This document shows positions 10,101 to 63,834 of a DNA stretch of 64,000 bases, one piece after another. The notes beneath the pieces are model-generated. The model worked only from the letters and a program-made list of their open reading frames with translations, ran no database searches and had not been told where the DNA came from. How positions within the stretch are numbered: the stretch's first letter is position 1; the number at the start of each line of letters is the position of its first letter. The position numbers and the translations under genes are program-made. The stretch comes from an uncultured Actinomycetes bacterium (GTDB lineage Bacteria > Actinomycetota > Thermoleophilia > RBG-16-64-13). The stretch is taken from contig CAVPLM010000003.1 in the NCBI GenBank assembly GCA_963706025.1, forward strand, positions 224,001-288,000, given 5' to 3'.

Positions 10101-10578
10101 GCCGGTGCGGCCCAGTCGCTCTCCCGTGCTGCGCGGCGAGACCCGGGAGAAGGTCACGGGCTGCGGCAGTCTCTACGTCACCGTCAACGAAGACGACTTC
10201 GGTCCCAGGGAAATCTTCGCCAACATGGGGAAAGCCGGCGGTTGCGCTTCGGCGTCCACCGAAGCTATTGGACGACTCATCTCCCTGGCCTTCCGTTACG
10301 GGGTGCCACCCGACAAGATCGTGAAACAGCTCAAAGGTATCCGCTGTCACGTGCCTCTGGGATTCGGTCCCAATCAGATCCTTTCCTGCCCCGACGCTAT
10401 CGGCAAAGCGCTGGCCGACAAGTATCATCTCGCCAGCGGCAATGGCGGCAAGACCGTGGGCCAACTGGAGATCCCCATCTCGTTGGCGCAAGGCGCATGC
10501 CCGGACTGCGGCGGAGCGGTCGAGCACGAGGGCGGTTGCGTGGTATGCCGTTCATGCGGCTATTCCAAGTGCGCGTGA
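7152..10578 (+). CDS. nrdJ: Class II adenosylcobalamin-dependent ribonucleotide reductase with intein and C-terminal TSCPD/Zn-ribbon domain; one frameshift near 8080
   Basis: [32 protein letters not shown]|[45 protein letters not shown]...CRSCGYSKC. Confidence 0.93.
8004..9147 (+). mobile_element. Intein with LAGLIDADG homing endonuclease, inserted before the thiyl-radical Cys of NrdJ
   Basis: CITGDTLV block [11 protein letters not shown] block B, LGWLVGDG and [19 protein letters not shown] motifs, PVFDLTEP block F, NGIVISN|C end. Confidence 0.93.
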
Positions 10579-20920: not shown

Positions 20921-22024
20921 CTAGCCGCCGCCTTGGGGGACCGGCACCGTCTCGAGTAGTTTGGCCACCACGTTCTCGGCGCTCACGTCGCGCACTTTGG
21001 CGTCTGGGGACAGCATTATGCGGTGCGCGAGACAGCGCACTGCCAGGTCCTTGATGTCCTTGGGAACCACGAAGTCGCGGCCTCGCAACAACGCGAGCGC
21101 TTTGGCGGCTCTCATGAGGGCGATGCCGGCCCGTGGACTCGCGCCCAGATACACTTCTCGCTGCTGGCGGGTCGCGGTCATGATATCTACCACGTAGCGA
21201 CGCAGGGACGGAGCGACTCGGACCCGGGTCACGGCTTGGGTCATGGCAAGCACCTCGGAACCGTCCACGACCGGACCCAACTCGGCCAGCGGATTGCGCG
21301 AGGTCTGCTCGTGGATGATGGCTTCTTCCGCTTCCGCGGAGGGATAGCCCAAGCTAACGCGCATCATAAAGCGGTCGAGTTGGGCCTCGGGCAGGGGATA
21401 GGTGCCTTCGTACTCTATGGGATTCTGAGTGGCGATCACCATGAATGGCGGATGTATGGCGTGGGTGATGTTGTCGACGGTTGCCTGCCGTTCTTCCATG
21501 CACTCCAGCAGGCTCGACTGGGTCTTGGGCGAGGCCCGGTTTATCTCGTCGGCCAGCACGATGTTGGCGAAGATGGGACCGGGTCGGAACTCAAACTCCC
21601 CGCGTCTCTGGTCGAAGACGCTGACCCCGGTGACATCGCTGGGGAGGAGATCGGGGGTGAACTGGATGCGGGCGAAGCGGCAGTCGATGGAACGCGCCAG
21701 GGATTTGGCGAGCAGCGTCTTGCCGACTCCGGGAAAGTCCTCGACGATAACATGGCCTCCCGCCAGAAGGGCGACCACACATGCCCGGATGACCTCTTCC
21801 TTGCCCAAGATGACCGAGGCGATAGCACCCGCGATGCGGGCGGCTCGCCGGGCGACCTCCTGCATCTCGTCGTCCTGTAGGACGGCCATGCCTGGCGCGC
21901 CCGAGGTGGAGGAGGGGCTGGCGGTGACCATCGGGCCGGACGGCTCGGCGGTGATGGTCTGAGTGACATCGGTAGCATCGGCGGTCGCAAACGGGTCGAC
22001 GGGGCCTAGGATCCTATCGGGCAT
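20921..22024 (-). CDS. moxR: MoxR-family AAA+ ATPase
   Basis: PGVGKT, RIQFTPDLLPSDVTG, LADEINRASPKTQSSLLE, ATQNPIEYEGTYPLPEAQLDRF. Confidence 0.93.
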   Translation of the reverse strand: MPDRILGPVDPFATADATDVTQTITAEPSGPMVTASPSSTSGAPGMAVLQDDEMQEVARRAARIAGAIASVILGKEEVIRACVVALLAGGHVIVEDFPGVGKTLLAKSLARSIDCRFARIQFTPDLLPSDVTGVSVFDQRRGEFEFRPGPIFANIVLADEINRASPKTQSSLLECMEERQATVDNITHAIHPPFMVIATQNPIEYEGTYPLPEAQLDRFMMRVSLGYPSAEAEEAIIHEQTSRNPLAELGPVVDGSEVLAMTQAVTRVRVAPSLRRYVVDIMTATRQQREVYLGASPRAGIALMRAAKALALLRGRDFVVPKDIKDLAVRCLAHRIMLSPDAKVRDVSAENVVAKLLETVPVPQGGG

Positions 22025-22310
22025 GATGCCCCTCCCATTCTGTGAACCGGTAGTCGGCGGGATTACCTGCAATCTCGAGACCTGCGTCGAGGGCCGCGTC
22101 CGCCTCGGCCTCCGCGGCGGCACTACTGCTGCTACGACGTACGAGACCGGCTTCCGAGGTTCCGGCGACTCGTTGAGCCGCGATCGTCTCGGGAAGCCTG
22201 GGACGCAAAGTGGAGGCCTTGTCGAGATAGATCATGAATCGCTCCGCGCGGTGGTATCCCGTTGCATTTTACCCTGCTCACGGGCGTATGACACCCTGGG
22301 GGTGACTCGC

Positions 22311-29392: not shown

Positions 29393-30259
29393 GAGCGCCG
29401 CTTGTCTAGGGGGGTGGGAGGGCGCCGGTCCGCGAAGGCGGCCGGCGCCCCGAAGGGGTTCGAACATACCTGCGCTCGCCGACCGTTCGGCTGACCCACG
29501 AGAGAGGCGAAGGCGGCATACCCGGCGGCTTGGGCGAGCGCGACCGCATGATCGAAGTCGCGGCCCACTTCTTGCGGCTCGTGCGCGTCGGAGCCGAAGG
29601 TGACGGCTACTCCCGCGTCGCACAACCGGCGGAGGATGTCGAGACTGGGATAGGCTTCACCCACCGGCCTGTGGAGGCCTGCCGTGTTGATCTCGACCAA
29701 GACGCCGGCCTTCGCCACCCGCTCCACCAGACGGTCGAGCTCGGTCCCCAGGGTCCGAGTGGGGCGATAGCCGAACTTCTTCACCAGGTCGAGGTGGCCC
29801 AAGATGGTGAAGAGGCCGCGATTCAGCGGCATCACCCACCACCTCGAAGTACTCGACCCACACGTCGTCGATCTCACGATCGGCGTACTCGTCCATCTGG
29901 CGGGGATCGTCGAACCCCCAGCCGCCCAGATGATGGACGGAGCCGATGACGTAGTCGAAAGGATGACTATCGAGGAGCGAACGGACCTCGAGGACCGTAT
30001 GCGGACGGTAGTCGGCCTCGACGCCGAGAAGCACGTAGTCGGGGAATCGGGCCTTGAGCGCCTGCACCTCGGTGACGTAATCGCCCAGCTCGCACGCGCT
30101 CATGGAGAGCTCGGGGTCGCGCTCCGGCAGCAGTGGGAGGTGATCGGCGATGCCGATGCCGATGAGACCCTTCGCGCGGGCCGCCTCTACATACTCGCCG
30201 GGATGCCCTGAGGCATGTCCGCAGCGGGCGGTGTGGGTGTGATAGTCGGGCAGGTGCAC
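29389..30259 (-). CDS. PHP-family histidinol-phosphatase (HisJ/HisK type), frameshift near 29820
   Basis: DYHTHT, ADH, GVEAD, DYVIGSVH, GHLDLVKKF, EINTAG, FGSDAH. Confidence 0.85.
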
Positions 30260-30260
30260 G

Positions 30261-30806
30261 TCAGTCTCCTTTGAGGAGTTGGGAGTCCACACTAGGCCCA
30301 TGACCGTTCGTCACTCTCCGGGGCCCGGCGAGCGTCTCGCTGTCGAGCAGGATGGTGTAAGGGCCGTCGTTGACCAGCGACACGGTCATGTGTGCCCCGA
30401 ACCGGCCTGTGGCCGTCGACACTCCCAGTCGCTCCAGCGCAGAGCGGAACTCCTCCACCAAGGCCTCGGCCGGGCCGGGATCGGCGGCTTCGGTGAAAGA
30501 CGGCCGGCGGCCGCGGCGACAGTCCGCGTACAACGTGAACTGGCTGATCACCAGAGCCGCGCCCCCGGTATCGAGGAGGGAGAGATTCGACTTGCCCTCG
30601 GTGTCGGGGAAGATGCGCAGGTTGGCGACCTTGTCGGCCAGTGCCGCCGCTCTTGCACCGCCCATCGTGTCCTCTCCGCCATCACGCGTTCCCACGTCAC
30701 CCCTCCCCGCTCCCACGAAGATGAGCAGGCCCCCATCGATCTCGCCCACGACACTGCCTTCGACCCGTACCGAGGCATGGCTCACCCGCTGGACCACGGC
30801 CCTCAT
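30261..30806 (-). CDS. dtd: D-aminoacyl-tRNA deacylase
   Basis: [26 protein letters not shown]. Confidence 0.95.
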
Positions 30807-48443: not shown

Positions 48444-49466
48444 ATGGGTGTTGATCTCTTCATCGACTATCTCATCAAGGTCACCCCTGAGATCGACGAG
48501 AAGTTGCACGGGTACCTGGCCGGGGTCCCGGAGGGCAGCCCTCTCCACCAGTATCTGTACGGGATCCTGGACGAGTTCATCGTCCGCGGAGGCAAACGGG
48601 CGCGACCGGCTCTGGCCATGCTGGCGTGCGAGGCGGTGGGTGGCGAGCCGCGCAAGGCCCTGTCCGCCGGTTGTGCGATCGAGTTCTTCCATGCAGCGGC
48701 GCTTATCCACGACGACATCATGGATGCGAGCCTACTTCGCCGCGGTCAGAAGTGCGCGCACATCCTGCACGGCGCACCGCTGGCCATCAACGCCGGCGAC
48801 TACGCTCTGGGCCTGGTATGCACCATCGTGGTGCGCGATCCGTTGCTCGACGACGCCACCAAGTTGGCGGTCCTAGACGTCATCGGCGAGATGAGCGCCC
48901 GTACGGTCGAGGGTCAGGCGCTCGACGTGGGCTGGGTGCGCGACGACGTCTACGACCTTACTCTCGATGACTACCTGCAGATGGCTCTAGGCAAGACCGG
49001 GTACTACTCCGGCATTGCTCCGGTCAAGGTGGGATCGATCATCGGGGGGGCCACGAACGAGGAGAAAAAGGCGCTCGAAGGTTTTGGAAAGAGCTCTTCC
49101 ATCGCTTTTCAGATACAGGACGATCTTCTCAACATCCTGGGCGACGTCGACACCATGGGTAAGGACTACCTCACCGACGTGGTCGAGAGCAAGCGGACGC
49201 TCATGGTGATCCACTGCCTGACGGTAGCGGAGCCGGTGGATAGAGAGCGGCTTGTGGAGATCTTGCGTTTGGGACACGGCAAGAACCTGGAGCATGCGGC
49301 GGAGGTGTTGGAGCTGCTGCGGCGTTATGACTCCATCGGGTTCGCGCGCGCCCAAGCCCGCGATCTAATCAAGGAGGCGCGCGAGTGTCTCGGCGTTTTG
49401 CGGGCATCACCTGCCCGTGACGTGCTGGAGTCGATGGCGGACTTCTTCCTGGAGCGGGAGAAGTAG
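48444..49466 (+). CDS. Trans-polyprenyl diphosphate synthase
   Basis: GGKRARP, IHDDIMD..LRRG, GQALD, KT, FQIQDDLLN. Confidence 0.92.
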   Translation: MGVDLFIDYLIKVTPEIDEKLHGYLAGVPEGSPLHQYLYGILDEFIVRGGKRARPALAMLACEAVGGEPRKALSAGCAIEFFHAAALIHDDIMDASLLRRGQKCAHILHGAPLAINAGDYALGLVCTIVVRDPLLDDATKLAVLDVIGEMSARTVEGQALDVGWVRDDVYDLTLDDYLQMALGKTGYYSGIAPVKVGSIIGGATNEEKKALEGFGKSSSIAFQIQDDLLNILGDVDTMGKDYLTDVVESKRTLMVIHCLTVAEPVDRERLVEILRLGHGKNLEHAAEVLELLRRYDSIGFARAQARDLIKEARECLGVLRASPARDVLESMADFFLEREK

Positions 49467-49467
49467 G

Positions 49468-51131
49468 GTGGACGACGCGAGACTGAAGGCGCTGCGCGGA
49501 CTCCCGTCGGTGGAGGAACTGGTAAGCCACTCGGCTGCGGCAGCCCTCCTGGAACGCTACCCGCGGGTTCAGGTGGTCGAAGCGGCCCGGGTGGCGGTGG
49601 AGGCGGTGAGGCAGGCGATCGTGACCGATGGCCCGACGAGCGGCGGAGACACCCGGACCGTCGGCGCTGTGGCGGCTGCGCGAGCCGACGCTTCCTCGGA
49701 GACGCTTCTCGCCCAAATGGCCGTCATCTTGGAGTCGTGGGCGCGGCCGGGCCTGCGGCGGGTCTTCGACCTGAGCGGAGTAGTGGTCCACACGAACCTG
49801 GGTCGCGCTTGCCTGGCCGAAAGCGCGGTGGAGCGGGTGACGGAAATCGCTCGTTCTTACAGCAACCTGGAATACGATCTGGAAGCGGGAGTCCGCGGCC
49901 GGCGTGAGGTCCACGTTGAAGCCCTGCTCACTCGGCTGACCGGTGCAGAGGCCGCCTTCGTGGTCAACAACAACGCGGGCGCGATGCTGCTCCTCTTGAT
50001 GGGACTGGCCTCCGGGCGCGAGGTCCTGGTCTCGCGGGGACAATTGGTGGAGATCGGCGGTTCTTTCCGGCTGCCGGAGATCATGCGTGCAGGAGGCGTT
50101 CGGCTGGTGGAGGTGGGGACGACCAACCGGACCCGGATCTCGGACTACGAAGCTGCCATCACTGCCGAGACCGCGCTGTTGCTGCGGGTGCACACCTCCA
50201 ACTACCGGATCCTCGGCTTCGTCGAGGAAGCCGATTTGGCCGAGCTGGTCGATCTGGGCTGCCGGCGAGGTCTGCCGGTCGCCGACGACCTGGGTAGCGG
50301 CGCCCTGTACGAGCTCGACGCGTTCCTCGGGGAGCCGGCGGTGATGGCGTCGTTGCGGGCGGGCGTGGATGTGGTCTGCTTCAGCGGGGACAAGCTGCTG
50401 GGCGGTCCGCAGGCCGGGATCCTCCTCGGCCGGGCCGAGTTGATCGACAGACTCCGCGGGCACCCGGTAGCCCGTGCTCTACGCCTGGACAAGATGACGC
50501 TGGCCGCGCTGGAGGCGACCCTTCGTCTGTATCAGGACCCGGACCGGGCCCGTCGGGAGATCCCCACGTTGCGCTATCTCAGCCGCACTTCGGCGGAGAC
50601 GAGCGCGCTGGCCTCGGCTCTGCAGGCGGCCATCGAGCGGCGCTGCGGGGACGGTTTCATCCTGGAAGTGGAGGAGTCGAGCGCTCGGGCCGGCGGTGGC
50701 TCGATGCCGCTGGTGGAATTGCCGTCGCATGCCGTACGCATAAGGTTCCCGGAACAACCGGTACAGAGCGGAGCGCAGGGCGGGTCTGCCCGGCCCGCGG
50801 GAGCGGCCGGGGGTCCCGGAGGTTCGGCCGCCACGGACGCGGGGACCTTGCGGGCTTCCGGGCCCACGGTCTCGGCGCTGGAAGCGCAACTGCGCCGGGC
50901 GCCGATCCCCGTGGTGGCGCGGGTATCGCAGGACAGCCTCCACTTGGACGTGCTGGCTCTCGCTGAGAGCGAGGTGGAGGCCGCGGCCGAGAGCGTCGCC
51001 TGGGCGATCGAGCAGCTGGTGGGTCCGCCTACCGGGACGCCGACGGGGCCCTCGACCGGCCCTCCGGCCGGGGCGCCGGCTGCGGCCCCACCCGGGGCCT
51101 CGGCGGGTCTTCGACCGGGGCGGGGCCGTGA
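49468..51131 (+). CDS. selA: L-seryl-tRNA(Sec) selenium transferase; likely ends at the GTGA overlap with selB after a frameshift in a low-complexity tail (raw ORF runs to 51399)
   Basis: HTNLGRA, SNLEYDL, VNNNA, EIGGSFR, EVGTTNRT, DLGSG, FSGDKLLGGPQAG. Confidence 0.93.
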
Positions 51132-53197
51132 CCAAGGGGTCGACGCCCGCGGCGGGTGCGGGCTTGGAGGCGGCGCCCGGCCCCCGGGCGCCCGGGAACC
51201 GGGAGGCTGGGGGTCGGGGGTCCGGAGCAGCGCGTCCCCTGACCTTGGGGACCGCAGGTCACATCGACCACGGCAAGACCACCCTCATCAAGGCCCTTAC
51301 CGGTCGGGACACCGACCGGCTCAAAGAGGAGAAGGAGCGGGGCATCAGCATCGAGCTTGGCTTCGCCGAGCTGGTATTGCCCAGCGGCCGGCATCTTAGT
51401 GTGGTCGACGTTCCTGGGCACGAGCGTTTCGTCAAGACCATGGTGGCCGGGGCCACGGGGATCGACCTCTTCCTGTTGGTGGTGGCCGCCGACGACGGGG
51501 TCATGCCTCAGACCCGAGAGCACCTGCGCATCATCGAACTGCTCGACATCCCTACCGGCATGGTGGCCCTCACCAAGGTCGATGTCGTCGAGCGCGATCT
51601 GGCCGAGTTGGCGCGCGCCGACGCGGAGGAGTTCCTTGCCTCCACCCGTTACGCGGGGGCGCCGATCGTGGCGGTCAGCGGCGTGACGGGGGAGGGACTG
51701 CCCGAGCTGCTGGCCGCGCTCGACCGGTTGGGGGAACAGGTACCGCCGCGCCCCGCGTATCCCGCGACCCGCATGCCGGTCGACCGGGTCTTCTCCCTGA
51801 AGGGGATCGGGACCGTGATCACCGGCACCCTGTGGTCGGGGAACCTCAGCGCCGAAGACACGGTAGCTATTCTCCCGCCCCGGGCCGCTCGAAGCTCCGC
51901 CGGACTTCGCGACATACGGGTGCGGAGCGTGCAGGTGCACGACCAGGAAGTGGCTGTGGCCACCGGCGGCCAACGAGTAGCGCTGAACCTCACGGGCGTC
52001 GACCGAGATGAAGTCGACCGCGGGCAGTGGGTGGTGAAGGATCCCGCCATCAATCCCACCTTCCTGGCCGACGTGCACCTGATGTTGCTGGCCGACGCGC
52101 CCGGCGGGCTGTCCAGGGTGTCCCGGGCGCGGGTGGACCACGGGACCGCCGAGATACTGGCCAAGGTCGTGCTTGCCGACCGCGAATCCCTCGAGCCGGG
52201 AGAGTCCTGCTACGCCCAAGTACGTTTCGAAAGACGGGCCTTGGTGTATCCGGGCGACCAGTTCATCCTCCGCTCGGTCACGCCCGTTACCACTATCGGT
52301 GGGGGCCGGGTGATCGATCCCGCGCCGCATAAACACAGCACCGGGCCGCGGTGGCACGAGCGTCTCGCCTTGCTGGAGCAGGGACCGCCGGACGGGATCG
52401 CCGCCCTATTGCTCGAAGAATCGTTCCCGCGTTTCCTGGTCCGCGGGAGACTGGAAGCCAGTCCTTACCTCTGGCGTTTTGCCACCACTGATGTGGGCGC
52501 GGCCGTCGCCCGCCTGCTGGCGGACGGCCGCGCCCTACCGGTCCTCGGCGTCGGGACTACGGGCGCCGCGAGTGCCCGGCTTCTCCATGGGCCGCGGCTT
52601 CTGTCGCTGACCGAGACCACTCTGGGCACCCTGCGGGCCCAGGCCGAAGACGACGGATTGAACCCATATCTCACCCTCGGCGAGTTGCGGCGGCGCTTGG
52701 CAGGGGGCAAGGAGTGGCCGGCGCTCGACGCCGCGCTCGAGCGACTCCAGGCCGCCGACGAAGTCCTCCGTAGTGAGCATGGCTATCGCTGGGCGGGAGC
52801 TGTCGTCGCGCCGGATACCGCCGAGAGCCTGGTGATCGAGCGCCTGTTGGAGCAATTCACGGCGCCAGGCGCCGCCGAGACGCCGAGCGTGGTCGTGGCC
52901 GCGACGGCCGCCGGGCTCGTGCCTCGCGAGGCGCAGAAGATGGTTGACGCCTTGGTCCGTCAGGGCCGGTTGATCAAGGTAGGCGAAGACCTCTACTACC
53001 CGCAGGACCGGCTGCAGTCGCTCATGGATCGCCTGTCAGCCGCCATGGAGGCGGCCGGGCAACTGACCCTGGCGGAAGCCCGCGATCTGCTTGGCACGTC
53101 GCGGCGTTATGCCCAGGCCCTTCTCGAGCACATGGATTCTGAAGGCCTGACCCTCCGGGTGGGTGAGGCGCGGCGCCTGCGGCGCCGCCGCCGGTGA
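51128..53197 (+). CDS. selB: Selenocysteine-specific elongation factor
   Basis: [33 protein letters not shown]-terminal winged helix [19 protein letters not shown]. Confidence 0.95.
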
Positions 53198-53449: not shown

Positions 53450-54559
53450 GTGAAGATCAAAGCGGCTGTCCTACGGGAAGTCAAGAAAGGCTACAGTATC
53501 GAGGAACTTGAGCTCGAACCGCCACGTGCGGGTGAGGCCCTTATCAAGTATGCCTACACCGGCTACTGCCACAGCGATCTGAGCAACCTCATGGGCCGGA
53601 TCGAGATGGCCTTGCCGATGGTGGCCGGCCACGAATGCGCCGGCGTCGTCGAGGCCGTTGGCCCGGGCGTGACCCGCGTGAAGGTGGGCGATCACGTTGC
53701 CAGCGCGTGGATGGTCCCCTGCGGGGACTGCCCCGAGTGTCGCCGCGGGCTAGGCAATGTCTGCTCGGGCAACTTCCAGCACTTCGTCGGGGGCACCATG
53801 CTCGACGGTACCACCCGCATCAGGGACGCCAAGGGCAAGCCGGTTCTGCACGGCAACTTCGTATCCGGCTTCTCCGACTATACGGTGGCCCCCGAGGGCG
53901 CACTCGTGCCCATCCGCAAGGACATGCCTCTCGACTGGGCCTCCCTGATGAGTTGCTGCGTTCCCACAGGTTGGGGGACGGTAACCAAGCTGGCCAATGT
54001 CCAGCCTGGGGACAAGGTCGCCGTATGGGGCCTGGGAGGCGTGGGTCAGAACACGCTCCGCGCGGCCAAGATGCGGCAGGCCAACCCCCTCATCGCAGTG
54101 GATCTCGAGGAGTCCCGACGCGACCTCGCCCTCGAGTTGGGCGCCACGCACTTCATCTGCAATTCGCAGGAGGACCCTGTCCCGATCATCCAGGGGCTGA
54201 CAGGCGGGGGCGCGAACTTTATCTTCGAGTGCAGCGGAGACCCGGGCGCCCTGGTGCAGGCCTGGTGGGCACTGGGAGCGGCCGGTCGCCTTATGGTCAT
54301 CGGGATCATGGCCCAAGACCAGGTGGCGCCCATGCCCCTGACCTTCATGGCCCTGCAGCAGAAGGCGATGATCGGCGGGCTCTACGGTTCCATCTCGACA
54401 AAAGACGACATCCCGAAATTGGTCGATCTCGCGATGACCGGGGAGCTGAAACTGGACAAGATAGTAGAGGGCAAGTTCAAGCTCGAACAGATAAATGAGA
54501 TCGCCGAGAAGATGGAGAAGCGGCAGCTCGGCGGGCGCTGGGTCTGCGAATGGGACTGA
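53450..54559 (+). CDS. Zn-dependent MDR alcohol dehydrogenase, probably mycofactocin-coupled
   Basis: CHSD, GHECAG, CGDCPEC...C structural Zn, GLGGVG; directly upstream of mftA. Confidence 0.88.
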   Translation: MKIKAAVLREVKKGYSIEELELEPPRAGEALIKYAYTGYCHSDLSNLMGRIEMALPMVAGHECAGVVEAVGPGVTRVKVGDHVASAWMVPCGDCPECRRGLGNVCSGNFQHFVGGTMLDGTTRIRDAKGKPVLHGNFVSGFSDYTVAPEGALVPIRKDMPLDWASLMSCCVPTGWGTVTKLANVQPGDKVAVWGLGGVGQNTLRAAKMRQANPLIAVDLEESRRDLALELGATHFICNSQEDPVPIIQGLTGGGANFIFECSGDPGALVQAWWALGAAGRLMVIGIMAQDQVAPMPLTFMALQQKAMIGGLYGSISTKDDIPKLVDLAMTGELKLDKIVEGKFKLEQINEIAEKMEKRQLGGRWVCEWD

Positions 54560-54593: not shown

Positions 54594-54719
54594 ATGGATA
54601 CGACGTTCGACGACGCCCTGGCCAATGTCCCCAGCCCCGCTTGTGCCGAGGAGCCGGCGATCCTCGAGGAAATCGAGGTCGAGGATCTGGCCGTAGACGG
54701 CATCTGCGGTGTCTACTGA
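54594..54719 (+). CDS. mftA: Mycofactocin precursor peptide, 41 aa; not in the supplied ORF track
   Basis: GGAGG RBS; MDTTFDDALANVPSPACAEEPAILEEIEVEDLAVDGICGVY*, matching the IDGxCGVY C-terminal signature. Confidence 0.95.
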   Translation: MDTTFDDALANVPSPACAEEPAILEEIEVEDLAVDGICGVY

Positions 54720-54972
54720 GCGAACGAGCGAGTATCTCGTGCCGGACTGGGTCCGCGTGCGGCGCGAGAGCTTCGGGCTGCTCTTCTACGATACCCGTTC
54801 CACTAGGCTGACGTTCGTGCGCTCCGGTGACAGCCTGGCGCCTCCGCCCTTCACCGGCCCCCTTCGCGCCCTCCGCGTGAACCCGGTCGACGAGGGGCGG
54901 CGTCCGGCGGTGTCGCGACTCCTGCAGAGCCTTGTAGCCAAAGGCCTCATCGTTGCCGCCGAGCCTCAGTAG
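54709..54972 (+). CDS. mftB: Mycofactocin RRE chaperone
   Basis: VRVRRESFGLLFYDTRSTRLTFVRS, L..L..KGLI; lies between mftA and mftC. Confidence 0.9.
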   Translation: MSTERTSEYLVPDWVRVRRESFGLLFYDTRSTRLTFVRSGDSLAPPPFTGPLRALRVNPVDEGRRPAVSRLLQSLVAKGLIVAAEPQ

Positions 54973-56018
54973 CACCCGGCTCCGCGCGCCGGTCAACGTC
55001 ACCTGGGAGATCACCGAGGCGTGTAACCTCCGCTGCACCCATTGCTTGTCCGCCGATCTGTGGGCGGGGGGGCGGGGCGAGCTCGACCTGGGCCAGTGCC
55101 GGGCTCTCATCGACGAACTGGCGCGCATGGAGGTCTTCCAGGTGAACTTCGGAGGCGGAGAGCCCTTCCTACGGGACGATTTCCTCGACATCCTCCGCTA
55201 CGCGCATTCCCGGGGCATTACCAACTGCGTCAGCACCAACGGGACGTTGCTCGAACGACGCTCTTGTCGATGAGCTACTGCGAGTGGCGCCCGTCTACCT
55301 ACAGGTGAGCCTTGACGGCGCGTGCGCCGATACCAACGACGCCATCCGAGGCCGGGGGACCTTCGCCCGCATCCTCGCGGGTATCGAGCTTCTCTCCGAG
55401 CGCGGCTATCCCGACTTCAGCCTCAACCTGGTGGTCACCCGCCTGAACGTGGCCGAGATCGCGGACTTCGACCGGCTCGCCCGGCGCTACGGCGCCAAGA
55501 CCCGTCTCTCCCGTTTCCGCCCCTCTGGAGCGGGGTGCAGCATCTGGGAGGACTACCGGCTGACCCGGGACCAGCTCCTGGCGCTCTCGGCCTTTCTGGG
55601 GGACCACTCGGAGATCCTGACCGGCGATTCGTTCTTCGCCCTTACCCCGGAGAGTCGCCGGGCCCTGGGGCTGAACATGTGCGGCGCGGCGAAGATGACC
55701 TGCGCCGTGGCGCCCGACGGCAGCGTCTATCCCTGCGCTTTCCTCTGTCACCCCGACTTTCTCGCCGGCAACGTCACCGCCGAGCCGTTCGCGGCCATCT
55801 TCCGCTCCTCGCCGGTGCTCGAACGGTTCCGGGAGCTCGAGGTAGATACGTGCCGCACCTGCGACCGCTTCTCCGTCTGCCACGGTGGCTGTCCGGCGGT
55901 GGCGTGTTTCCTCACTGAGTCGCTGGACCATCCCGACCCGGAGTGCCTGCGTGCTGTGTTGCCCGTCACGGAAGCGGTGCCCGTCAGGGAGGCGATACCC
56001 GCCAAGGAGGTGGCCTAG
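54953..56018 (+). CDS. mftC: Mycofactocin radical SAM/SPASM maturase, frameshift near 55255
   Basis: APVNVTWEIT, CNLRCTHC, GGGEP, STNG, QVSLDG, RFRPSG, LNMCGA..TC....DG.VYPC, CRTC...CHGGC, DPEC. Confidence 0.92.
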
Positions 56019-56021
56019 GCC

Positions 56022-57972
56022 ATGCAGTTCCCCAACCTCTTCAGCCCTTTGCGGATCGGTCGGGTGACCGTGCCCAACCGCATCTCCTTCTCCGCCCATC
56101 TGACGAACCTCGCGGATGACGCACTGCCCACCGACCGGCTCACACACTACCTGGCGGCCCGCGCCCGGGGCGGGACCGGCCTGATCATTACCGAAGAGCA
56201 GTCCGTCCACCCCACCGACCGGGCCTACGAGCGACTTATCGAGGCCTTCCGTCCGGAGGTCATCCCCGGCTACAGGCGGCTCACTCAGGCGGTCCACGCC
56301 TACGACACCCGCATCTTCGCCCAGCTCAACCACAACGGGCAGCAGTGCAGCGGCAGCCTTTCCCGGCTTCCCGTGTGGGCGCCCTCCCCCGTTCCGGACG
56401 TGCTCTACCGGGAGACGCCCAAGGCCATGGAGATCGAGGACATCCAGGAAATGATCGATCACTTCGCGCTTTCCGCGGTCCATGTCCGCGAAGGCGGGTT
56501 CGACGGGGTGGAGCTGCAGTTCGGTCACAGCTCGCTGGTGCGCCAGTTCATGTCGCCGCTCACGAACTATCCGGGGCGACGAGTACGGCGGCGACTTCGA
56601 GAACCGGATCCGGTTCGCCCTGCAGGTGATCGCCGCGGTCCGTGAGGCGGTGGGCGCCGACTTCACCCTGGGCGTACGCCTCTGCGCCGACGAGCTGATC
56701 CCCGGGGGACTCACCCTCGACGACGCCAAGCAGATCGCGCAGCGGCTCGAAGCGACCGGCCACCTGGACTACTTCAACCTCACTCTGGCCACCTTCTACA
56801 ACCTCTATCTGGTCGGGGGCCCCATGCATCTGCCTCTGGGCTACGCGGTCCCCTTGGCGGCCGGTATCAAGGAGGTGGCGACGCTCCCGGTGTTCGCCAC
56901 CGGGCGCATCAACGACCCGGCGATGGCCGAGCGGGTGCTGGCCGAAGGACAGGCCGACATGATCGGGGTGGTGCGGGGCCAGATCGCCGACCCCGACTTC
57001 GCCCGCAAGGCCCGCGAGGGCCGGACCGAGGAGATACGCTACTGCATAGCCTGCAACCAGAATTGCTACGGACGGGTGGGGCTCAACAAGACGATCGGGT
57101 GCGTCCAGAACCCCTTCGTAGGTCACGAAGACACCGAGGGAGAGTCGCATCTCCGGCCTGCGCTACGCAAGAAGCGGGTAATGGTCGTGGGCGGGGGCCC
57201 AGCGGGCATGTGGGCGGCCAAGATCGCCACCCTGCGGGGACACCAGGTGACCCTGTACGAGAAGGCCGAGGAGCTCGGCGGCCAGGTGCTCCTGGCCGCG
57301 AAGGGAGCAGGCAGGGACGAGTTCGGGGTGATCGTGCGTAACGAGCGCAACCAGTTGGCCCATCTGGGGGTGCCCGTGGAGCTTGGCGTGGAGGTCACGC
57401 CGGAGCTCGTTCTCGAACAGCAGCCGGACGCGGTGATCGTGGCCACCGGGTCGCGTCCCAAGGCCAGCCCGGTCGCCGGCGCCGACGGCCCCCATATCTT
57501 CAACGTGTGGCAGGTCCTGAGCGGGGAGGCAGAGCTGGGCGAGAAGGTGCTCTTGATCGACTACGACGGCCACCACCAGGCGACGGCCACGGCGGAGTTC
57601 CTCGCCGAGCTCGGCAAGACCGTGCACGTGGTGACCTCGAGCCTCTTCGTGGGAGCTGAGCTGGGTCCGTCGCAGGATCTCTATCTCACCCGGCAGCGAC
57701 TGCTCCAGAAAGGGGTCACCTTCACCCCCGACTTCGCGGTCATGGAGATCAAGGGCACGGAGGTCCACGGTTTCAACGTCTACTCCAATGTCTGGGACGT
57801 GTTCTCGGGTCACGACAGCATCGTCACCGCCATGGGCAACGACGCCTACGACGGTCTCTACTTCGCCCTCAAGGGGAAGGTACCCGAGCTCTACCGTATC
57901 GGCGACTGCGTGGCGCCGCGGAAGGTGGACATGGCCATCCACGAAGGCTACATGGCCGGCAAGCGCGTGTGA
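56022..57972 (+). CDS. FadH/OYE (TMADH-like) flavoenzyme with 4Fe-4S, mycofactocin-associated type; frameshift near 56570
   Basis: NRISFSAH, RARGGTGLII, GFDGVELQ..H, N.R.DEYGG..ENR, CIACNQNC-x11-C, VVGGGPAG. Confidence 0.88.
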
Positions 57973-59060
57973 GTACCAGTGGCGACAACGCGACGCCCGC
58001 GGTGGCTGCCGGCCCTAGCAGCGGCGGCGCGCGCGCCCTCCTCGTGGTCGTCGAGCCGCCGAGCGGAGGGAGCGAAGCGGTCGGAATGGTCGGCGCGGCG
58101 GGGGCCGTTCTCCTCACCGAAGGCGCCCGGCTCGCTCGCGATCTGGGGGTAGACCCGCACTTTGTCACCTGGCCGGCCGGGGCGGAAGTCGACCCCGAGC
58201 TGCTGGCCGCGGCGCTGGCCGATCTCGTCGAGCACACGCGGGCGAGGGCCGTCGTACTGGCCGACACCGATGTCGGCCGCCAGCTCGCGCCCATGGTGGC
58301 CCACCGACTGGGCTCCGGGGCCGTAGTAGGCTGCAGCGACGTGCTGCTGCGCGAGGAAGCCGAGGGGGGCGGCCGGGCGGGCCGGCGGGCGGACGGTGGA
58401 CCGGGCTCCTGCGCGGAAGGTGGACGGGGACCGCGGACCCTTGCGTTCGTGAAGCCGGTCTACGGGGGCTGGTTGGAACGGGAGATCGAACCCGGGGCCG
58501 GCGTCGTACCGGTCGCGACCCTGGACCTCACCGGGATGGAGGCGCCGGACTCTCCTTCGGACGGGTTGCCGACCCCAGAGGTCCTGCAGATCGAGGTCGG
58601 CGCGCCCGGCGCGCAACCGCACGTCCAGCACCTCGAGACCATCCCCCCGGACCCTCGGTCCGTGGACCTGGTCCATGCCAGACGCATCGTGGCCGCTGGG
58701 GCGGGAAGTGCGAGCGAAGATCTCCTGGCCGCGGTGCGGGAGCTGGCCGAGCTTCTCGAGGGTTCGGTGGGAGCTACTAGGCCGGTGGTCGACGACGGGC
58801 GCCTCCCCAAGGAGCGGCTTATCGGTCAGACGGGTAGGACGGTGACCCCTGAGTTGTACCTCGCGCTTGGGATCTCGGGTTCCCCTCACCACGTGGCGGG
58901 GGTGCGGAAGGCCGATCGGATCCTCTCTATCAACCGGGATGTACGTGCCCCCATCTTCCAGTTCTCCGACGTCGGCTATGTCGCAGACCTGGAGGTGGTG
59001 CTGCCCGGCCTCGTGCAGAGGATCAAGGAGTGGCGGGATGCCCCCGGCAGTCCCGACTAG
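57969..59060 (+). CDS. fixB: Electron transfer flavoprotein alpha subunit
   Basis: KPVYGG, GATRPVVD, IGQTGRTV.PELYLALGISG, INRD..APIF..SDVG.VADL. Confidence 0.9.
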   Translation: MSTSGDNATPAVAAGPSSGGARALLVVVEPPSGGSEAVGMVGAAGAVLLTEGARLARDLGVDPHFVTWPAGAEVDPELLAAALADLVEHTRARAVVLADTDVGRQLAPMVAHRLGSGAVVGCSDVLLREEAEGGGRAGRRADGGPGSCAEGGRGPRTLAFVKPVYGGWLEREIEPGAGVVPVATLDLTGMEAPDSPSDGLPTPEVLQIEVGAPGAQPHVQHLETIPPDPRSVDLVHARRIVAAGAGSASEDLLAAVRELAELLEGSVGATRPVVDDGRLPKERLIGQTGRTVTPELYLALGISGSPHHVAGVRKADRILSINRDVRAPIFQFSDVGYVADLEVVLPGLVQRIKEWRDAPGSPD

Positions 59061-60483
59061 CCCCGTTGGCGCATCCACCGGTAGCGGCGCAGGCGTTCGC
59101 GGAGGCTCCGCCCCGGGTGCGCCCACTCCCGGCGCCTCCGTCCGCGGCTCCTCCGGAGGGTTCGATGCCATAGTCGTCGGCGCGGGCCCGGCCGGCACGA
59201 GCGCGGCGCTCGGCCTAGCACAGAAAGGGGCCAAGGTCCTCCTCCTGGAGCGAGGCGAGTACCCCGGGGCCAAGAACATGTTCGGCGGGATGACGGCCTA
59301 CTGCCCGGCTCCAGAGCAGCTGGTACCCGACTTCTGGGAGCGTGCTCCTTGGGAGCGAGCGGTGACCAAGCGGGTGCTCTCCGTGGTGGGCGAGGCTTCC
59401 TCCACCTCGCTGGTCTTCCATGCCAACTCCGACTCCGATCGACCCTCGGCGGGCGCCGGCTCGACCTCCGACCGGACCCTGACCGGGTTCACCCTCTTCC
59501 GCCCTCTCTTCGACCGCTGGTACGCGGAGCAGGCGGTCGCCCAGGGAGTGACCCTGCTCACCGGCTGCCGCGCGGAGGGTCTGCTGATGCGCGATGGAGC
59601 CGTCCGGGGAGTGCGTGTGACTGGGGTCGACGACATCGTGGAGGCTCCTCTGGTCATCGCCTGCGACGGGACCCTGTCCTTCCTGGCCCAAGAAGCCGGG
59701 CTGCATGGAGGCTTCAAGCCGGAACAGGTGGCGCTCGGAGTCCGAGCTCTTTACCGGCTGACCGAGGAGGAGATCAACGACCGCTTCGGCCTCACCGGCC
59801 GCGAGGGCGCTACCCACGAGTTCCTGGGCTGCACAGAAGGGATCCGTGGAGGCGGCTTCATCTACACCCAGACCGAGACCCTCTCGGTGGGCCTGGTGAT
59901 GCACCTCGACTCGCTGAAATCACGGGGGATACCGCCCTACGAGATGATGGAGCGTTTCATCGTCTCCAGCCCGGTGGCTTCGATGCTTCGGGGGGCCCGG
60001 CTGGTTGAGTACTCGGCCCACCTGCTGCCGGAGGCCGGCATGCGCATGGTACCTCGCTTGTCCACCGAGGGATTGCTGGTCGCCGGGGACGCCGCCGGGT
60101 TCTGCTACACGAACGGACTCACCCAGGAAGGGATGAACCTGGCCATGACCTCGGGCCTCGTGGCAGGCCGGGTGGCCGCGGAAGCCCTGGCCGAGGGCGA
60201 CTTCTCCGCGGCCCGTCTCGCGCGCTACGCGGAAGAACTCAAGCAGAGCTTCGTCCTGCGCGACCTGACCACGTTCGGTCGGGCCATCGATTTCCTGCAC
60301 CATGACCGGCTGTTCACGGTCTACCCGCGGGTGGTGAGCGCGCTCATGGAGGACGTCTACCGCTCCGACGGCAGCCCCAAGGAGAAGATCGGCCGCCTGG
60401 GCCGCAGGGCGGTGAAGGACGAGGTACCGTTACGTCAGCTGATCGCGGACCTGTTCGGAGGAGGGAGGGCGTTCCTGTGGTAG
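59038..60483 (+). CDS. fixC: FixC-like ETF:quinone oxidoreductase flavoprotein
   Basis: FDAIVVGAGPAG, ERGEYPGAKNMFGG, APWER, GGGFIYT..E..SVG, EYSAHLLPE, GDAAG, GMNLAMTSG. Confidence 0.9.
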   Translation: MPPAVPTSPVGASTGSGAGVRGGSAPGAPTPGASVRGSSGGFDAIVVGAGPAGTSAALGLAQKGAKVLLLERGEYPGAKNMFGGMTAYCPAPEQLVPDFWERAPWERAVTKRVLSVVGEASSTSLVFHANSDSDRPSAGAGSTSDRTLTGFTLFRPLFDRWYAEQAVAQGVTLLTGCRAEGLLMRDGAVRGVRVTGVDDIVEAPLVIACDGTLSFLAQEAGLHGGFKPEQVALGVRALYRLTEEEINDRFGLTGREGATHEFLGCTEGIRGGGFIYTQTETLSVGLVMHLDSLKSRGIPPYEMMERFIVSSPVASMLRGARLVEYSAHLLPEAGMRMVPRLSTEGLLVAGDAAGFCYTNGLTQEGMNLAMTSGLVAGRVAAEALAEGDFSAARLARYAEELKQSFVLRDLTTFGRAIDFLHHDRLFTVYPRVVSALMEDVYRSDGSPKEKIGRLGRRAVKDEVPLRQLIADLFGGGRAFLW

Positions 60484-60752
60484 TCGATGAACTGTTCGAC
60501 CTGGTGAGCTACCGGATCCACCCCGAGGCACACATCCTCCTAAACCAGGACGTCTGCCAGGACTGCACCCATCGCGCGTGCACCTTTGCCTGCCCCGCGC
60601 GCTGCTACACCTGGAGCGAGGAGCGAGCCCGGGTGGAGTTCGCCTACGAGGCATGTCTGGAATGCGGCACCTGCCTGCTCCTTTGCGACCGCGAAGCTCT
60701 TGACTGGCATTACCCCCATGGAGGGTATGGTGTGCGCTTCCGACTCACATAG
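60477..60752 (+). CDS. fixX: FixX-like ferredoxin
   Basis: CQDC....CTFACPARCY, EACLECGTC, W.YP.GGYGV. Confidence 0.9.
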   Translation: MVVDELFDLVSYRIHPEAHILLNQDVCQDCTHRACTFACPARCYTWSEERARVEFAYEACLECGTCLLLCDREALDWHYPHGGYGVRFRLT

Positions 60753-60888
60753 TTTCCAAGCGGCCACTCCGATTGCCGGTGGGATTCCGCCGTGGCGTCC
60801 GCGCCGTCGGCGACCGCGCGCGGCGGCGAGGCCCGCTCTCGCCGCGCGGACTCGCCGGCATGTGGGCGCCCCCATGGGGAGTCTACCG

Positions 60889-61863
60889 ATGAAGCTGCTC
60901 GTCTTCCTGGAGCTGGGCGCCGACGTGCGCATCCCGCCGGAGCGCGATTCGCGCAGCGGACGTGTCCGCGAGGATTGGCTCGTGCGGGAGATCGATCCGG
61001 CCGGCGCTCGTGCCCTCGACCTTGCGTTGGGCGTGAAGGCGGCCCGACCGGGTACCGAAGTGACCCTTTTCCACCTCGGGCCGCCGAACAACGAACCCTG
61101 GCTCCGTCAAGCCCTGGCCCGGGGCTGCGACCGGGCGGTGCGCGTCTGGGATGACGAGGTCGCCGAGGTCCGAGCCGCGGGCAAGGCGGTCGTCCTGGCC
61201 GCCGCCGCGGAGGCAGCCGGCTTCGACCTTGCTCTTGCTGGAGCCGCAGGCGTCATCAACAACAGCGGTCAGTTCGGTGTGCTTCTCGCCGCTCATCTGG
61301 GCTTGCCCTGCGTGACCCAGGTGATCGACATCGTGCTCTCGGACGGCACAGGTAGCGTGGAGATGAGCCGCGGTCTGGACAAGGGCTTTCGCGAGCGGGT
61401 GGAGGTGCCCCTGCCCGCCGTGGTGACCGTAGCGGCCGGCGGGCCCACTTCAGATGGCGCGCCGCCGCCCGATGTCTCTGCCGCCGCCTTCCTGGCTGCC
61501 CATGACTACGAGATCACGGTGTGGGACCTGGCCGACCTGGGAGTGCCCCGCGAGAGGGTCCGGCGCGCCGACCAGCCCCTCAGATACGGCCGTCCCCGTC
61601 CTCGTCAGCCCCGGCTTCATAATCTCGCGGCGCCCGACCCAGCTCTGCCGGCTTTCGACCGTATCCTGGAGCTTGTCCGAGGATCGGTGCAGACGCGTCA
61701 GGGCCGCGTCGTTCAGCAGCCCGCGGAAGCGATCGTAGAGGAGATCTTCAAGACTCTGAGGGATGAGGGCTGGCTCGATCACCTCCGTGCCGGCGAGGGC
61801 CGCGGTGCCGATGGCTCGATCCCCGCCGCCGGCCCGACCCCGGAGGCCGGTGAGCCTCTTTGA
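60889..61863 (+). CDS. fixA: Electron transfer flavoprotein beta subunit, divergent
   Basis: ALDLAL, LGPP, LRQALARGCDRAVRV, DL.LAG, LAAHLGLPCVT, LPAVVTV, W..ADLG. Confidence 0.8.
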   Translation: MKLLVFLELGADVRIPPERDSRSGRVREDWLVREIDPAGARALDLALGVKAARPGTEVTLFHLGPPNNEPWLRQALARGCDRAVRVWDDEVAEVRAAGKAVVLAAAAEAAGFDLALAGAAGVINNSGQFGVLLAAHLGLPCVTQVIDIVLSDGTGSVEMSRGLDKGFRERVEVPLPAVVTVAAGGPTSDGAPPPDVSAAAFLAAHDYEITVWDLADLGVPRERVRRADQPLRYGRPRPRQPRLHNLAAPDPALPAFDRILELVRGSVQTRQGRVVQQPAEAIVEEIFKTLRDEGWLDHLRAGEGRGADGSIPAAGPTPEAGEPL

Positions 61864-63404
61864 TACCCTTGGAGTACCGGCTTCGTGAGTCGGTGCGGTT
61901 CGAACAGAATACCGACGGTACCTGGTGCGTAGTATCCGAGCTGCCTCTCAGCGTGGTGACGGTCAACGCGTCCGCCGTCCGGCTCTTGGAACGTACCCGT
62001 GACGGCGCCTCGATCACCGATATCGCTGCCGAGCTCCGCATTCCTGAAGAACGGATCTTCACCCTATGCGAGTACTTTCGCGGCCGGGGGATCCTCGAAG
62101 TCGGCCGGTCGAGTCCCGATCCCGACTTCGCGCCGTCGGCAACGGTGATCGTCCCCACCCGCGACCGCGCGAACGATCTGGACGACTGTCTGGGCGCTCT
62201 TGCTCACCTGGACTACCCGCGCGACCGGCTCGAAGTGATCGTCGTCGACGATGGCTCCGCCGACCCGGACGCGGTCGCGGAAGTCGTCGCTCGCCACGGT
62301 TGCCGCCTGCTGGTCAACGAGCGCAACCGAGGCCCCTCCTACTCGCGCAACCGAGCCGCCCGCGAAGCGGCGGGCGAGATACTCGCGCTGGTCGACAGCG
62401 ACTGCGTGACCGGCCCGGGCTGGCTCCGGGAACTCACGCCCTACTTCTCCTGGGAACGCGTGGGAGCGGTAGGAGGCCGTACGCTCGGCTACTACACCGA
62501 GTCGCGGCTCGACCGATACGAGGAGGTCGCTTCTCCTCTCGACATGGGCAGGCATCTGGTCCTGAAGACGCGAGGAAGCGACACGTTCTACGTTCCCACG
62601 TGCAATCTCCTGGTGCGCCGGTCCGTGTACCTCGATCTGGGGGGCTTACGCGAAGACCTGCTTGTGGGTGAGGACGTGGACTTCTGCTGGCGTCTCCGGG
62701 CATCCGGGGCCTATCTCGTATACGCCCCCGAAGGGACGGTGCGCCATAAGCACCGCAACCACCTGGGTTCGATGCTCCAGCGGCGGGCGGACTACGGGAC
62801 CTCCGAAGCCACGCTCCACGCGCTCCATCGCGACAAGCGCAAGCGCTTCCCGCTGGCCCCGGCTCCCTTGGCGACCGTAACCATGTTCTCAGCGGCTCTG
62901 GTCGGGATGCAGCCAGGGTTGCTGCCTATCTGCTTGGCGCCGCCGCTGTGGGACGGGGCGCGTCGTTCACTTCATCTGCGGCGCAGCGGGATCGATCTGC
63001 CCGCCGGGCGCGTGTGGTCTTCCGTGTTCCGTGGACACCTCTCCATGCTCTACTTCGTCTACTTCCATCTTGTGCGGTACTACCTGGTGCCTTTGGCCAC
63101 GGCGGGTCTCTTTGCCCCGGGTGTTCGGCTGCTCACTGCCTTCGCCGTCCTGTACTCCTCGGCCGTCGACTACTCCACCAAAGGGCCTCGGATCGGTTAC
63201 CCCACGTACCTCGGCTACTACCTGGCGGAGCACACGGCATATCAGATGGGTGTCATCGCGGGCTGCGTCCGCGCGCGGACCTTCCGGTCGTATCTACCGG
63301 CGGTCCAGCGGGACCGGTCGTCCGGAGACTGGCAGGCCGCGCGGGAAGAGCCCCAGGGCCACGCTGCCAGGATGCGCGGTGCCAGAACCCGTGTTTCTGG
63401 GTAA
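61860..63404 (+). CDS. mftF: Mycofactocin glycosyltransferase (GT2)
   Basis: VIVPTRDR, VVDDGS, N.GP...RN, VDSD, L.RYE...SPLDMG, YVPTCNLLVRR, GEDVDFCWR, YGTSEA.L. Confidence 0.9.
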   Translation: MIPLEYRLRESVRFEQNTDGTWCVVSELPLSVVTVNASAVRLLERTRDGASITDIAAELRIPEERIFTLCEYFRGRGILEVGRSSPDPDFAPSATVIVPTRDRANDLDDCLGALAHLDYPRDRLEVIVVDDGSADPDAVAEVVARHGCRLLVNERNRGPSYSRNRAAREAAGEILALVDSDCVTGPGWLRELTPYFSWERVGAVGGRTLGYYTESRLDRYEEVASPLDMGRHLVLKTRGSDTFYVPTCNLLVRRSVYLDLGGLREDLLVGEDVDFCWRLRASGAYLVYAPEGTVRHKHRNHLGSMLQRRADYGTSEATLHALHRDKRKRFPLAPAPLATVTMFSAALVGMQPGLLPICLAPPLWDGARRSLHLRRSGIDLPAGRVWSSVFRGHLSMLYFVYFHLVRYYLVPLATAGLFAPGVRLLTAFAVLYSSAVDYSTKGPRIGYPTYLGYYLAEHTAYQMGVIAGCVRARTFRSYLPAVQRDRSSGDWQAAREEPQGHAARMRGARTRVSG

Positions 63405-63480: not shown

Positions 63481-63834
63481 ATGGGTCGCTTGGTGGATGT
63501 CGGAGCAGCGGGGGACTTCGCAGACGGGACGATGCGGGCGGTGACCGTCGAGGGGCGCGAGCTGCTGGTCGCCCGGGTGGGCGACGCGTACTACGCAGCC
63601 GACGAACGGTGCCCTCACATGGGGGGAAGGCTGTCCCAGGGCAAGTTGGAGGGCACGATCGTCACCTGTCCTCGGCACGGATCTCGCTTCGACCTGGCCG
63701 ACGGGCGCATGGTCCGGTGGACCGACTGGTCGGGTCTCACCCTCACTCTGGCGAAGACATTCAAGTCGCCGCGGCCCATCAGAACCTATGCCACACAGGT
63801 ACAGGCTGACCGTTTGACGGTGGAGCTCGAGTAA
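63481..63834 (+). CDS. Rieske [2Fe-2S] ferredoxin
   Basis: CPHMGG and CPRHGSRFDL motifs. Confidence 0.9.
   Translation: MGRLVDVGAAGDFADGTMRAVTVEGRELLVARVGDAYYAADERCPHMGGRLSQGKLEGTIVTCPRHGSRFDLADGRMVRWTDWSGLTLTLAKTFKSPRPIRTYATQVQADRLTVELE

Follow-up and report, generated by a model that had tools for sequence, protein, structure and literature searches.

Enzymes of mycofactocin redox metabolism and their relatives

MftD, a member of the alpha-hydroxy-acid-oxidase family, converts AHDP into PMFT (PMC7491314) in a step that has been described as aerobic (PMC8406134), while alcohol dehydrogenases reduce mycofactocin and MftG, a GMC enzyme, reoxidises mycofactocinol for respiration, electron flow from PMFT (-255 mV) to menaquinone (-74 mV) being downhill (PMC11778925). 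In the same work, about 25% of the genomes with mftC are reported to be without MftG, and the reoxidant in these genomes is named by Graca et al. 2025 as an open question (PMC11778925). Being reportedly aerobic, the MftD step is also closed to anaerobes.

NCBIfam also holds TIGR03997, a family without an assigned function that is listed as "mycofactocin system FadH/OYE family oxidoreductase 2" (OYE2 in what follows), together with models for mycofactocin-associated subunits of the electron transfer flavoprotein (ETF), NF038209 (mft_etfA) and TIGR04503 (mft_etfB). Besides the family and these models, its mftD-less context has already been published, namely 17 Saccharopolyspora clusters without mftD which hold a TIGR03997 gene, its role left unassigned (BGCFlow, PMC11162802). 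Our search covered the open-access literature and found there no paper giving the family a function and nothing joining mycofactocin with an electron transfer flavoprotein. Among open-access papers on mycofactocin and mftC since 2023, only BGCFlow touches TIGR03997 at the level of titles and abstracts; an open-access search for mycofactocin with "old yellow enzyme" gave nothing relevant, and the published "lacking mftD" work found there concerns, by its listings, mutants.

The closest functional precedent for OYE2 is 6-hydroxypseudooxynicotine dehydrogenase (Pno), which contains non-covalent FMN, uses neither O2 nor NAD(P), and has EtfAB as acceptor, its gene cluster also containing etfAB and euo (ETF-QO) (PMC7688666). 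Both proteins share the three-domain FMN/4Fe-4S fold (6l6j, rmsd 2.0, 640 aligned), but with 27% identity, a catabolic amine as the substrate of Pno, and Euo where OYE2 has FixCX. Another relative, histamine dehydrogenase, deaminates a primary amine (PMC11759058).

Organization of the operon

The whole 64-kb stretch of DNA that was analysed, referred to here as the window, contains a mycofactocin operon in the order Zn-ADH, mftA, mftB, mftC, OYE2, etfA, fixC, fixX, etfB and mftF, with a small Rieske protein next:

53450..54559, + strand: Zn-dependent alcohol dehydrogenase that probably serves to reduce mycofactocin (best model TIGR03989, 317.9 bits, under its cut-off of 440)
54594..54719, + strand: mftA, variant-type precursor peptide of 41 aa (NF040489, 40.9 bits, cut-off 30)
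54709..54972, + strand: mftB, chaperone (TIGR03967, 46.7 bits, cut-off 33)
54953..56018, + strand: mftC, radical SAM maturase with a one-base frameshift near 55255 (TIGR03962, in two pieces; two tblastn frames)
56022..57972, + strand: OYE2 (TIGR03997), FMN/[4Fe-4S] flavoenzyme with a one-base frameshift near 56571 (308.7 and 635 bits for the pieces)
57043..57102, + strand: OYE2 cluster motif C-x2-C-x3-C-x11-C (C341, C344, C348 and C360 in P0001 numbering)
57969..59060, + strand: etfA, ETF alpha subunit (NF038209 mft_etfA, 140 bits, under its cut-off of 240; PF00766)
59065..60483, + strand: fixC-like flavoprotein resembling ETF:quinone oxidoreductase, start approximate (NF007542 FixC, 317 bits, under its cut-off of 610)
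60477..60752, + strand: fixX-like ferredoxin (best model NF011993 FixX, under its cut-off)
60889..61863, + strand: etfB, ETF beta subunit (TIGR04503 mft_etfB, 77 bits, under its cut-off of 200; PF01012)
61860..63404, + strand: mftF, glycosyltransferase (TIGR03965, 355.8 bits, cut-off 280)

The Zn-ADH is 63% identical to the one found 5' of mftA in locus L055 of the survey described below, the fixX-like ferredoxin is 43% identical to a Streptomyces cluster homologue, and the fixC-like protein gives a weak match to PF21162 (ETFQO_UQ-bd). No homologue of mftD, mftE or mftG was found by tblastn within the window, and a scan for promoters and terminators gave matches at chance level only.

The first-pass annotation had described a gene starting 3 bp after mftC, overlapping etfA and encoding an FMN barrel, a cysteine cluster motif and a nucleotide-binding domain. 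All of this holds, since the stop codon of mftC (TAG, 56016-56018) is followed after 3 bp by the ATG of OYE2 (56022-56024), the stop of OYE2 (TGA, 57970-57972) and the start of etfA (GTG, 57969-57971) overlap by 4 bases (57969-57972), and the domains are PF00724, the motif listed above and the Rossmann domain PF07992, whose first glycine motif lies at about 57190.

In the present assembly, a one-base frameshift that the first-pass annotation does not mention breaks OYE2 in two: the ORF at 56022-56645 matches residues 1-185 of an intact 649-aa protein, P0001, at 96%, and another frame, at 56572-57972, matches its residues 184-649 at 98%. P0001 scores 958.9 bits against TIGR03997, with a cut-off of 793.15, the next NCBIfam model being BaiCD, so that through this relative the window gene is a member of the family. 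Its named close homologues, with 75-91% identity, come from Thermoleophilia, Gaiellales and Actinobacteria MAGs, and its matches in the ESM Atlas bear names at family level only. The gene stands beside mft genes and is followed by ETF genes, and differs in nothing essential from TIGR03997. What is added here is a definite candidate, amenable to experiment, for a gap already named in mycofactocin biology; as a member of a curated family, the gene itself is ordinary.

Fold and active-site residues

The AlphaFold model of OYE2 (pLDDT 94) shows an FMN barrel, a 4Fe-4S motif and two Rossmann-like domains, as in trimethylamine dehydrogenase (TMADH), histamine dehydrogenase and Pno. Its best structural matches are, tied, the 2-naphthoyl-CoA reductase NCR (6qkg; Z 54.8, rmsd 1.9) and TMADH (2tmd; Z 54.6, rmsd 1.9, 643 aligned), followed by DCR (FadH, 1ps9; Z 52.9), Pno (Z 52.7) and histamine dehydrogenase (3k30; Z 51.9). 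By sequence, NCR (324 bits) and DCR (289 bits), which share the spacing of the cluster motif, score higher than TMADH (205 bits), so that the earlier label "TMADH-like" is apt for the fold but not for the sequence. Of 120 close homologues, 15 have Asp where the motif has C344. No sequence similarity of MftD or MftG to the window was detected by tblastn, and OYE2 gave no hit to the MftD model TIGR03966.

In TMADH, His172 is the active-site histidine and Tyr60, Tyr169, Trp264 and Trp355 form the aromatic amine-binding bowl, while Asp270 of histamine dehydrogenase and Tyr166 of DCR have catalytic roles. The histidine, common to TMADH and histamine dehydrogenase, pairs with His169 of OYE2, which all 118 of the close homologues aligned there retain and which is replaced by Gln in 9 of 120 actinobacterial homologues and in three Rhodococcus loci; Glu58, Glu59 and Glu70 are conserved too. 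Neither the bowl nor Asp270 is found in the sequence alignment, where OYE2 has Glu59, Gln166, Leu261, Val264 and Val352, the four bowl residues pairing, in the order given, with Glu59, Gln166, Leu261 and Val352. TMADH has Cys30 for covalent 6-S-cysteinyl FMN, whereas OYE2 has Leu27 in its place (in all 114 homologues with a residue at that position). In the second Rossmann fold of OYE2 there is no GxGxxG, but Asp513 in 120 of 120 homologues in each of two sets, as TMADH and histamine dehydrogenase have Asp there. DCR, in contrast, has an NADPH-binding glycine motif as well as Tyr166, which pairs with Ser171 of OYE2, and the lack of both argues against NAD(P)H-linked ene reduction. The residue pattern therefore fits a dehydrogenase which would hold FMN non-covalently and would not use NAD(P)H, and the O2-independent, ETF-coupled dehydrogenase architecture proposed at first sight is, as far as sequence and fold can tell, supported. 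Co-folding of OYE2 with EtfB gave scores of 0.42, 0.30 and 0.05, with the median under the 0.32 mark, and counts neither for nor against a contact between the two.

The second paralogue of some clusters, OYE1, has in common with bacterial OYE2 an H-x-T-N motif, Glu58, His63, a D-x-x-Y-E loop and His104, which suggests related ligands for the two.

Distribution in clusters, plasmids and genomes

A motif taken from the end of MftA was used to scan GTDB genomes and gave at least 120 stretches, a sample rather than a census; the 80 that came with flanking DNA (10 kb at most) were used and 40 short ones left out. Genes were assigned by tblastn, the OYE, MftD and MftG queries or matches being checked with NCBIfam (TIGR03966 for MftD, TIGR03970/TIGR04542 for MftG), and the OYE clades follow a tree of 40 sequences made by a quick method.

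An OYE2-clade gene was present in 16 of the 80 loci (15 above the cut-off, plus Halobellus), with at most one in each. mftD occurred in 3 of these 16 and in 39 of the 64 without one (Fisher p=0.004, with no correction for phylogeny), and mftG in 1 and 22 of them, respectively (p=0.03). Moreover, the ten loci with etfA and fixC all carry an OYE2-clade gene, and none of them has mftD (p=0.0003) or mftG (p=0.055, over all 80 loci). The direction of these results is unchanged after removing 25 loci that are short or without mftC. Among the 33 loci without mftG, mftD is found in 2 of 12 with OYE2 or an OYE2-like gene and in 12 of 21 without (p=0.033), a persistence of mftD avoidance which a pure replacement of MftG does not predict. 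In a tree of MftC (56 rows, after exclusion of short or split mftC and of loci carrying neither gene), D-type and OYE-type clusters interleave with 11 changes; the independent pairs contrasting OYE with mftD, five and thus too few for significance, show the opposite mftD state in three and the same state in none (p=0.25), and those contrasting ETF with mftD or mftG are two, likewise too few. Neither mftD nor an OYE gene was found in 20 of the 80 loci, of which 8 end within 2 kb of mftA, and plain ORF lists of the others gave no third candidate enzyme.

The three loci combining OYE2 with mftD are all from Rhodococcus, where they form one branch (support 93), carry the change of His169 to Gln and have no ETF genes in the retrieved flanks; one of them (L021) has mftG as well. 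OYE1 and OYE2 occur together without ETF genes in Rhodococcus, Pseudonocardia (L016) and Amycolatopsis (L019), and SDR genes lie between the two in L013, L041 and L049.

As for gene order, the constant neighbour of OYE2 is ETF and not mftC. In fact, OYE2 adjoins etfA wherever the ETF module occurs, and follows mftC directly only in the clade of the window (the window itself, L055, L066, L067 and L074), while in two-OYE clusters it is OYE1 that comes after mftC, or after mftD in Rhodococcus. The "mftD position" formerly ascribed to the gene is therefore real in the window but is not specific to this family. The window clade, which includes Geobacteraceae and Acidobacteriota loci, has a single OYE and is without OYE1, mftD, mftE and mftG. 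In all, the OYE2-etfA-fixC-fixX-etfB module was found in Actinomycetota, Thermodesulfobacteriota, Acidobacteriota, Pseudomonadota and haloarchaea.

A plasmid set, searched without anchoring on mftA, agrees with the mutual exclusion of OYE2 and mftD seen at cluster level. Of 12 plasmids with mftC, four carry mftD and the other eight an OYE gene; the latter are exactly the eight best matches of the OYE2 query (among the best 50 of 82 matches), all within about 10 kb of mftC, although they do not represent eight independent cases, being six from Streptomyces and two from haloarchaea. Five of the eight OYE-type regions were inspected, and in each of them OYE-etfA-fixC-fixX-etfB is accompanied by mftE and mftF, mftD and mftG being absent; in the three of four D-type regions inspected, no OYE was seen.

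At the level of whole genomes the exclusion is less strict. MftD proteins above the cut-off and named S. erythraea (two), Saccharopolyspora sp. ASAGF58 and Pseudonocardia bannensis occur among the matches listed, and the last two strains, judged by organism name, have OYE2 together with MftD, which indicates that mftD can sit elsewhere in OYE2 genomes. The phylogenetic profile against MftD that had been suggested as a check thus gives exclusion in clusters and plasmids and fails in the Rhodococcus clusters and in two named strains, and co-occurrence with intact mftD, put forward beforehand as what would speak against a deaminase, is found in part. By genus, Saccharopolyspora accounts for 18 names among the 120 OYE2 matches listed and 3 among the 120 MftD matches listed, and Amycolatopsis for 16 and none, respectively. 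S. erythraea is reported to make the methylmycofactocins MMFT-2, MMFT-2H2 and MMFT-3 (PMC9679996); these, with the mftD-less Saccharopolyspora clusters, were considered as support for deamination and dropped, given the MftD proteins named S. erythraea and ASAGF58.

Regarding MftG, the seven named carriers of OYE2 or of its haloarchaeal OYE2-like form that were found in the genome table of PMC11778925 are all entered there as lacking it (H. turkmenica, Halolamina CBA1230, S. yangpuensis, Streptomyces SAT1, Saccharopolyspora ASAGF58, S. pogona and S. spinosa). The Geobacter, Geotalea, Desulfofarcimen and Desulfonema entries of this table are also without MftG, and the Rhodococcus entries seen all have it (PMC11778925). 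In ASAGF58, with MftD but no MftG, the missing function would be that of MftG. Thermomicrobium roseum, in turn, has MftD, lacks MftG and shows no OYE near its mft cluster, so other recycling routes exist.

Proposed function

The reactions of MftD and MftG both remove the C3 hydride of the mycofactocin core, and the OYE2-ETF clusters are without either gene; OYE2 could supply either function. The reading placed first, at about even chances, is that OYE2 is a mycofactocinol dehydrogenase wired to quinone through ETF and FixCX, replacing MftG and perhaps also deaminating. The Zn-ADH 5' of mftA would reduce mycofactocinone to mycofactocinol, OYE2 would take the C3 hydride onto its non-covalent FMN, and the electrons would pass from FMN through the [4Fe-4S] cluster to EtfAB, FixCX and the quinone pool. 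OYE2 would then mainly recycle the cofactor, taking the place of MftG without being homologous to it. Recycling as its main task is suggested by the dedicated chain of ETF and FixCX, by the downhill potential and by the MftD-positive, MftG-less ASAGF58, and such a chain seems better suited to continuous reoxidation than to a maturation step taking place once per molecule, hence the first rank given to reoxidation, which the first-pass annotation had offered as an alternative to AHDP deamination.

Nevertheless, the characterised oxidative relatives act on amines and not on carbinols, which favours deamination chemically and counts against recycling. The loci with OYE1 and OYE2 but no ETF genes, the avoidance of mftD among mftG-less loci, the p=0.055 of ETF against mftG, the small number of independent pairs and the case of T. 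roseum weigh on the same side. Deamination of AHDP consists of an oxidation at the same carbon followed by imine hydrolysis, and OYE2 may therefore do both; in single-OYE clusters, without mftD, mftG and OYE1, it may also deaminate AHDP, once per cofactor molecule. With the amine-oxidising relatives, the conserved acidic residues and the exclusion of mftD among mftG-less loci, deamination in some form stays plausible and would be the case with a probability somewhat short of even. The stronger proposal, that a single Fe-S flavoenzyme with ETF-FixCX both matures (AHDP to PMFT) and recycles (MFTH2 to MFT) the cofactor in lineages without mftD and mftG, anaerobes included, is rather unlikely as it stands. 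If true, lineages from Geobacteraceae and Thermoleophilia to haloarchaea would share a full mycofactocin redox system that works without oxygen, and the OYE1/OYE2 pair of actinomycetes would divide maturation and recycling between them. The OYE2-EtfAB-FixCX module is in any case a concrete candidate for the MftG gap, the MftD gap or both, and oxidation of a carbinol by OYE2 would be, within the literature searched, a new type of reaction for the TMADH/FadH fold.

Alternative explanations

The main suggestion of the first-pass annotation, in the strict form that OYE2 does no more than deaminate AHDP without O2 in place of MftD, with ETF/FixCX taking the two electrons, draws on the exclusion of mftD in clusters, plasmids and independent pairs, on the place of the gene directly after mftC in the window clade, on the aerobic nature described for the MftD step (PMC8406134), on the primary amine substrate of histamine dehydrogenase (PMC11759058), on the conservation of His169 and the three glutamates, and on the absence of Amycolatopsis among the MftD matches listed. 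Its first element, the exclusion of mftD, is borne out at cluster level, but MftD coexists with OYE2 in Rhodococcus clusters, ASAGF58 and P. bannensis, S. erythraea has two MftD copies, the clusters are also without mftG, and OYE1 holds the position after mftC when both paralogues occur. Furthermore, the bowl residues of TMADH and Asp270 of histamine dehydrogenase are not conserved, and a respiratory chain of four genes would seem out of proportion to a biosynthetic step that runs at trace level. Deamination as the sole function is thus unlikely.

Decidedly unlikely is action on an outside substrate (an enoate, an enoyl-CoA, a steroid or an amine), in which case the gene would be clustered in the manner of the mycofactocin-coupled SDR dehydrogenases. 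NCR and DCR as best sequence matches, BaiCD as the next NCBIfam model, the SDR genes between OYE1 and OYE2 and the presence of OYE2 beside both MftD and MftG in L021 would agree with it; a catabolic client, however, would not be expected to occur at most once per locus, with a fixed link to etfA in bacteria and archaea and to the exclusion of mftD and mftG, and the catalytic Tyr and the NAD(P)H motif are absent.

We regard as very improbable a chain running in reverse, in which a bifurcating ETF of the FixABCX type would feed low-potential electrons to OYE2, which would reduce mycofactocin as NCR does its substrate. FixC- and FixX-like genes do accompany ETF, and NCR, a reductase, ties for the best structural match, but no bifurcation motifs were recognised in eight aligned, very divergent EtfB sequences, and alcohol dehydrogenases already reduce mycofactocin, which makes oxidation the step left (PMC11778925).

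Finally, that OYE2 is a pseudogene of a decaying operon in the source organism is scarcely credible, for although both mftC, whose pieces cover model positions 7-100 and 111-334 of TIGR03962, and OYE2 are frameshifted, the two OYE2 pieces have an intact counterpart at 96-98% identity, and nrdJ and hisJ elsewhere in the window are split by changes of frame as well, so that an error of the assembly is the likely cause.

Residue variation in OYE1 and OYE2

Among the OYE2 proteins, the flavoenzymes of family TIGR03997 carrying FMN and a [4Fe-4S] cluster, His169 (equivalent to His172 of TMADH) is replaced by Gln in members lacking the ETF genes, namely those of Rhodococcus and one Amycolatopsis subgroup (loci L013, L021, L041 and L019; proteins P0121-P0125). 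In every OYE2 seen beside etfA-fixC-fixX-etfB, His or an equivalent occupies this position, as it also does in the ETF-less locus L016. The His169 to Gln replacement in ETF-less OYE2 may represent a change of function. The cluster motif itself (C-x2-C-x3-C-x11-C) varies too, since its second position is Asp in the OYE2 of L055 and in 15 of 120 close homologues, while Fe-S cysteines have been lost from some proteins of the OYE1 clade, the mycofactocin paralogue (L014, L016, L062).

Operon contents and flanks

The peptidase which frees AHDP, MftE, is absent from all four single-OYE clusters with a variant MftA (L055, L066, L067, L074) and from the window, whose cluster lies at 54594-63404. According to one report, an M. 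smegmatis mftE deletion strain still forms mycofactocin in some amount (PMC7491314). The operon is flanked as follows:

49417-53197, selA and selB, selenocysteine machinery, immediately upstream
63481-63834, same strand as mftF, stand-alone Rieske [2Fe-2S] protein, directly downstream of mftF

A long low-complexity tail of the selA ORF overlaps selB in the window. As regards mftD, a tandem pair with 79% identity between copies is found in Rhodococcus sp. 1R11 (L076:11493-14026), and S. erythraea likewise has two MftD copies (P0322, P0325).

Split genes

Three further genes of the window are broken by a frame change:

54953-56018, (+), mftC
7152-10578, nrdJ, B12-dependent ribonucleotide reductase
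29560-30301, hisJ-family gene

Since all are split like OYE2, the assembly probably contains uncorrected indels. In addition, nrdJ (7957-10578) carries an apparent extra segment of ~400 aa near position ~280-288 of the model; this segment, whose first residue is a Cys after the conserved NPC motif, is probably an intein.

Other loci

Self-contained mycofactocin cassettes on Streptomyces plasmids are of two types, OYE1-OYE2-ETF (L122, L125, L128) versus mftD plus mftG (L123), a pair provided by nature for experiments. The L057 cluster, from a MAG labelled Mycobacteriaceae, almost matches loci of Rhodospirillaceae and Competibacter in its layout and in the clade of its OYE, a resemblance which points to misbinning or transfer. 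Haloarchaeal OYE2 genes are flanked by pairs of AAA ATPase and VWA-domain genes (L121:8694-11868; L126:21874-24998); an AAA ATPase gene of broadly the same kind lies in the window at 20921-22123, away from the operon.
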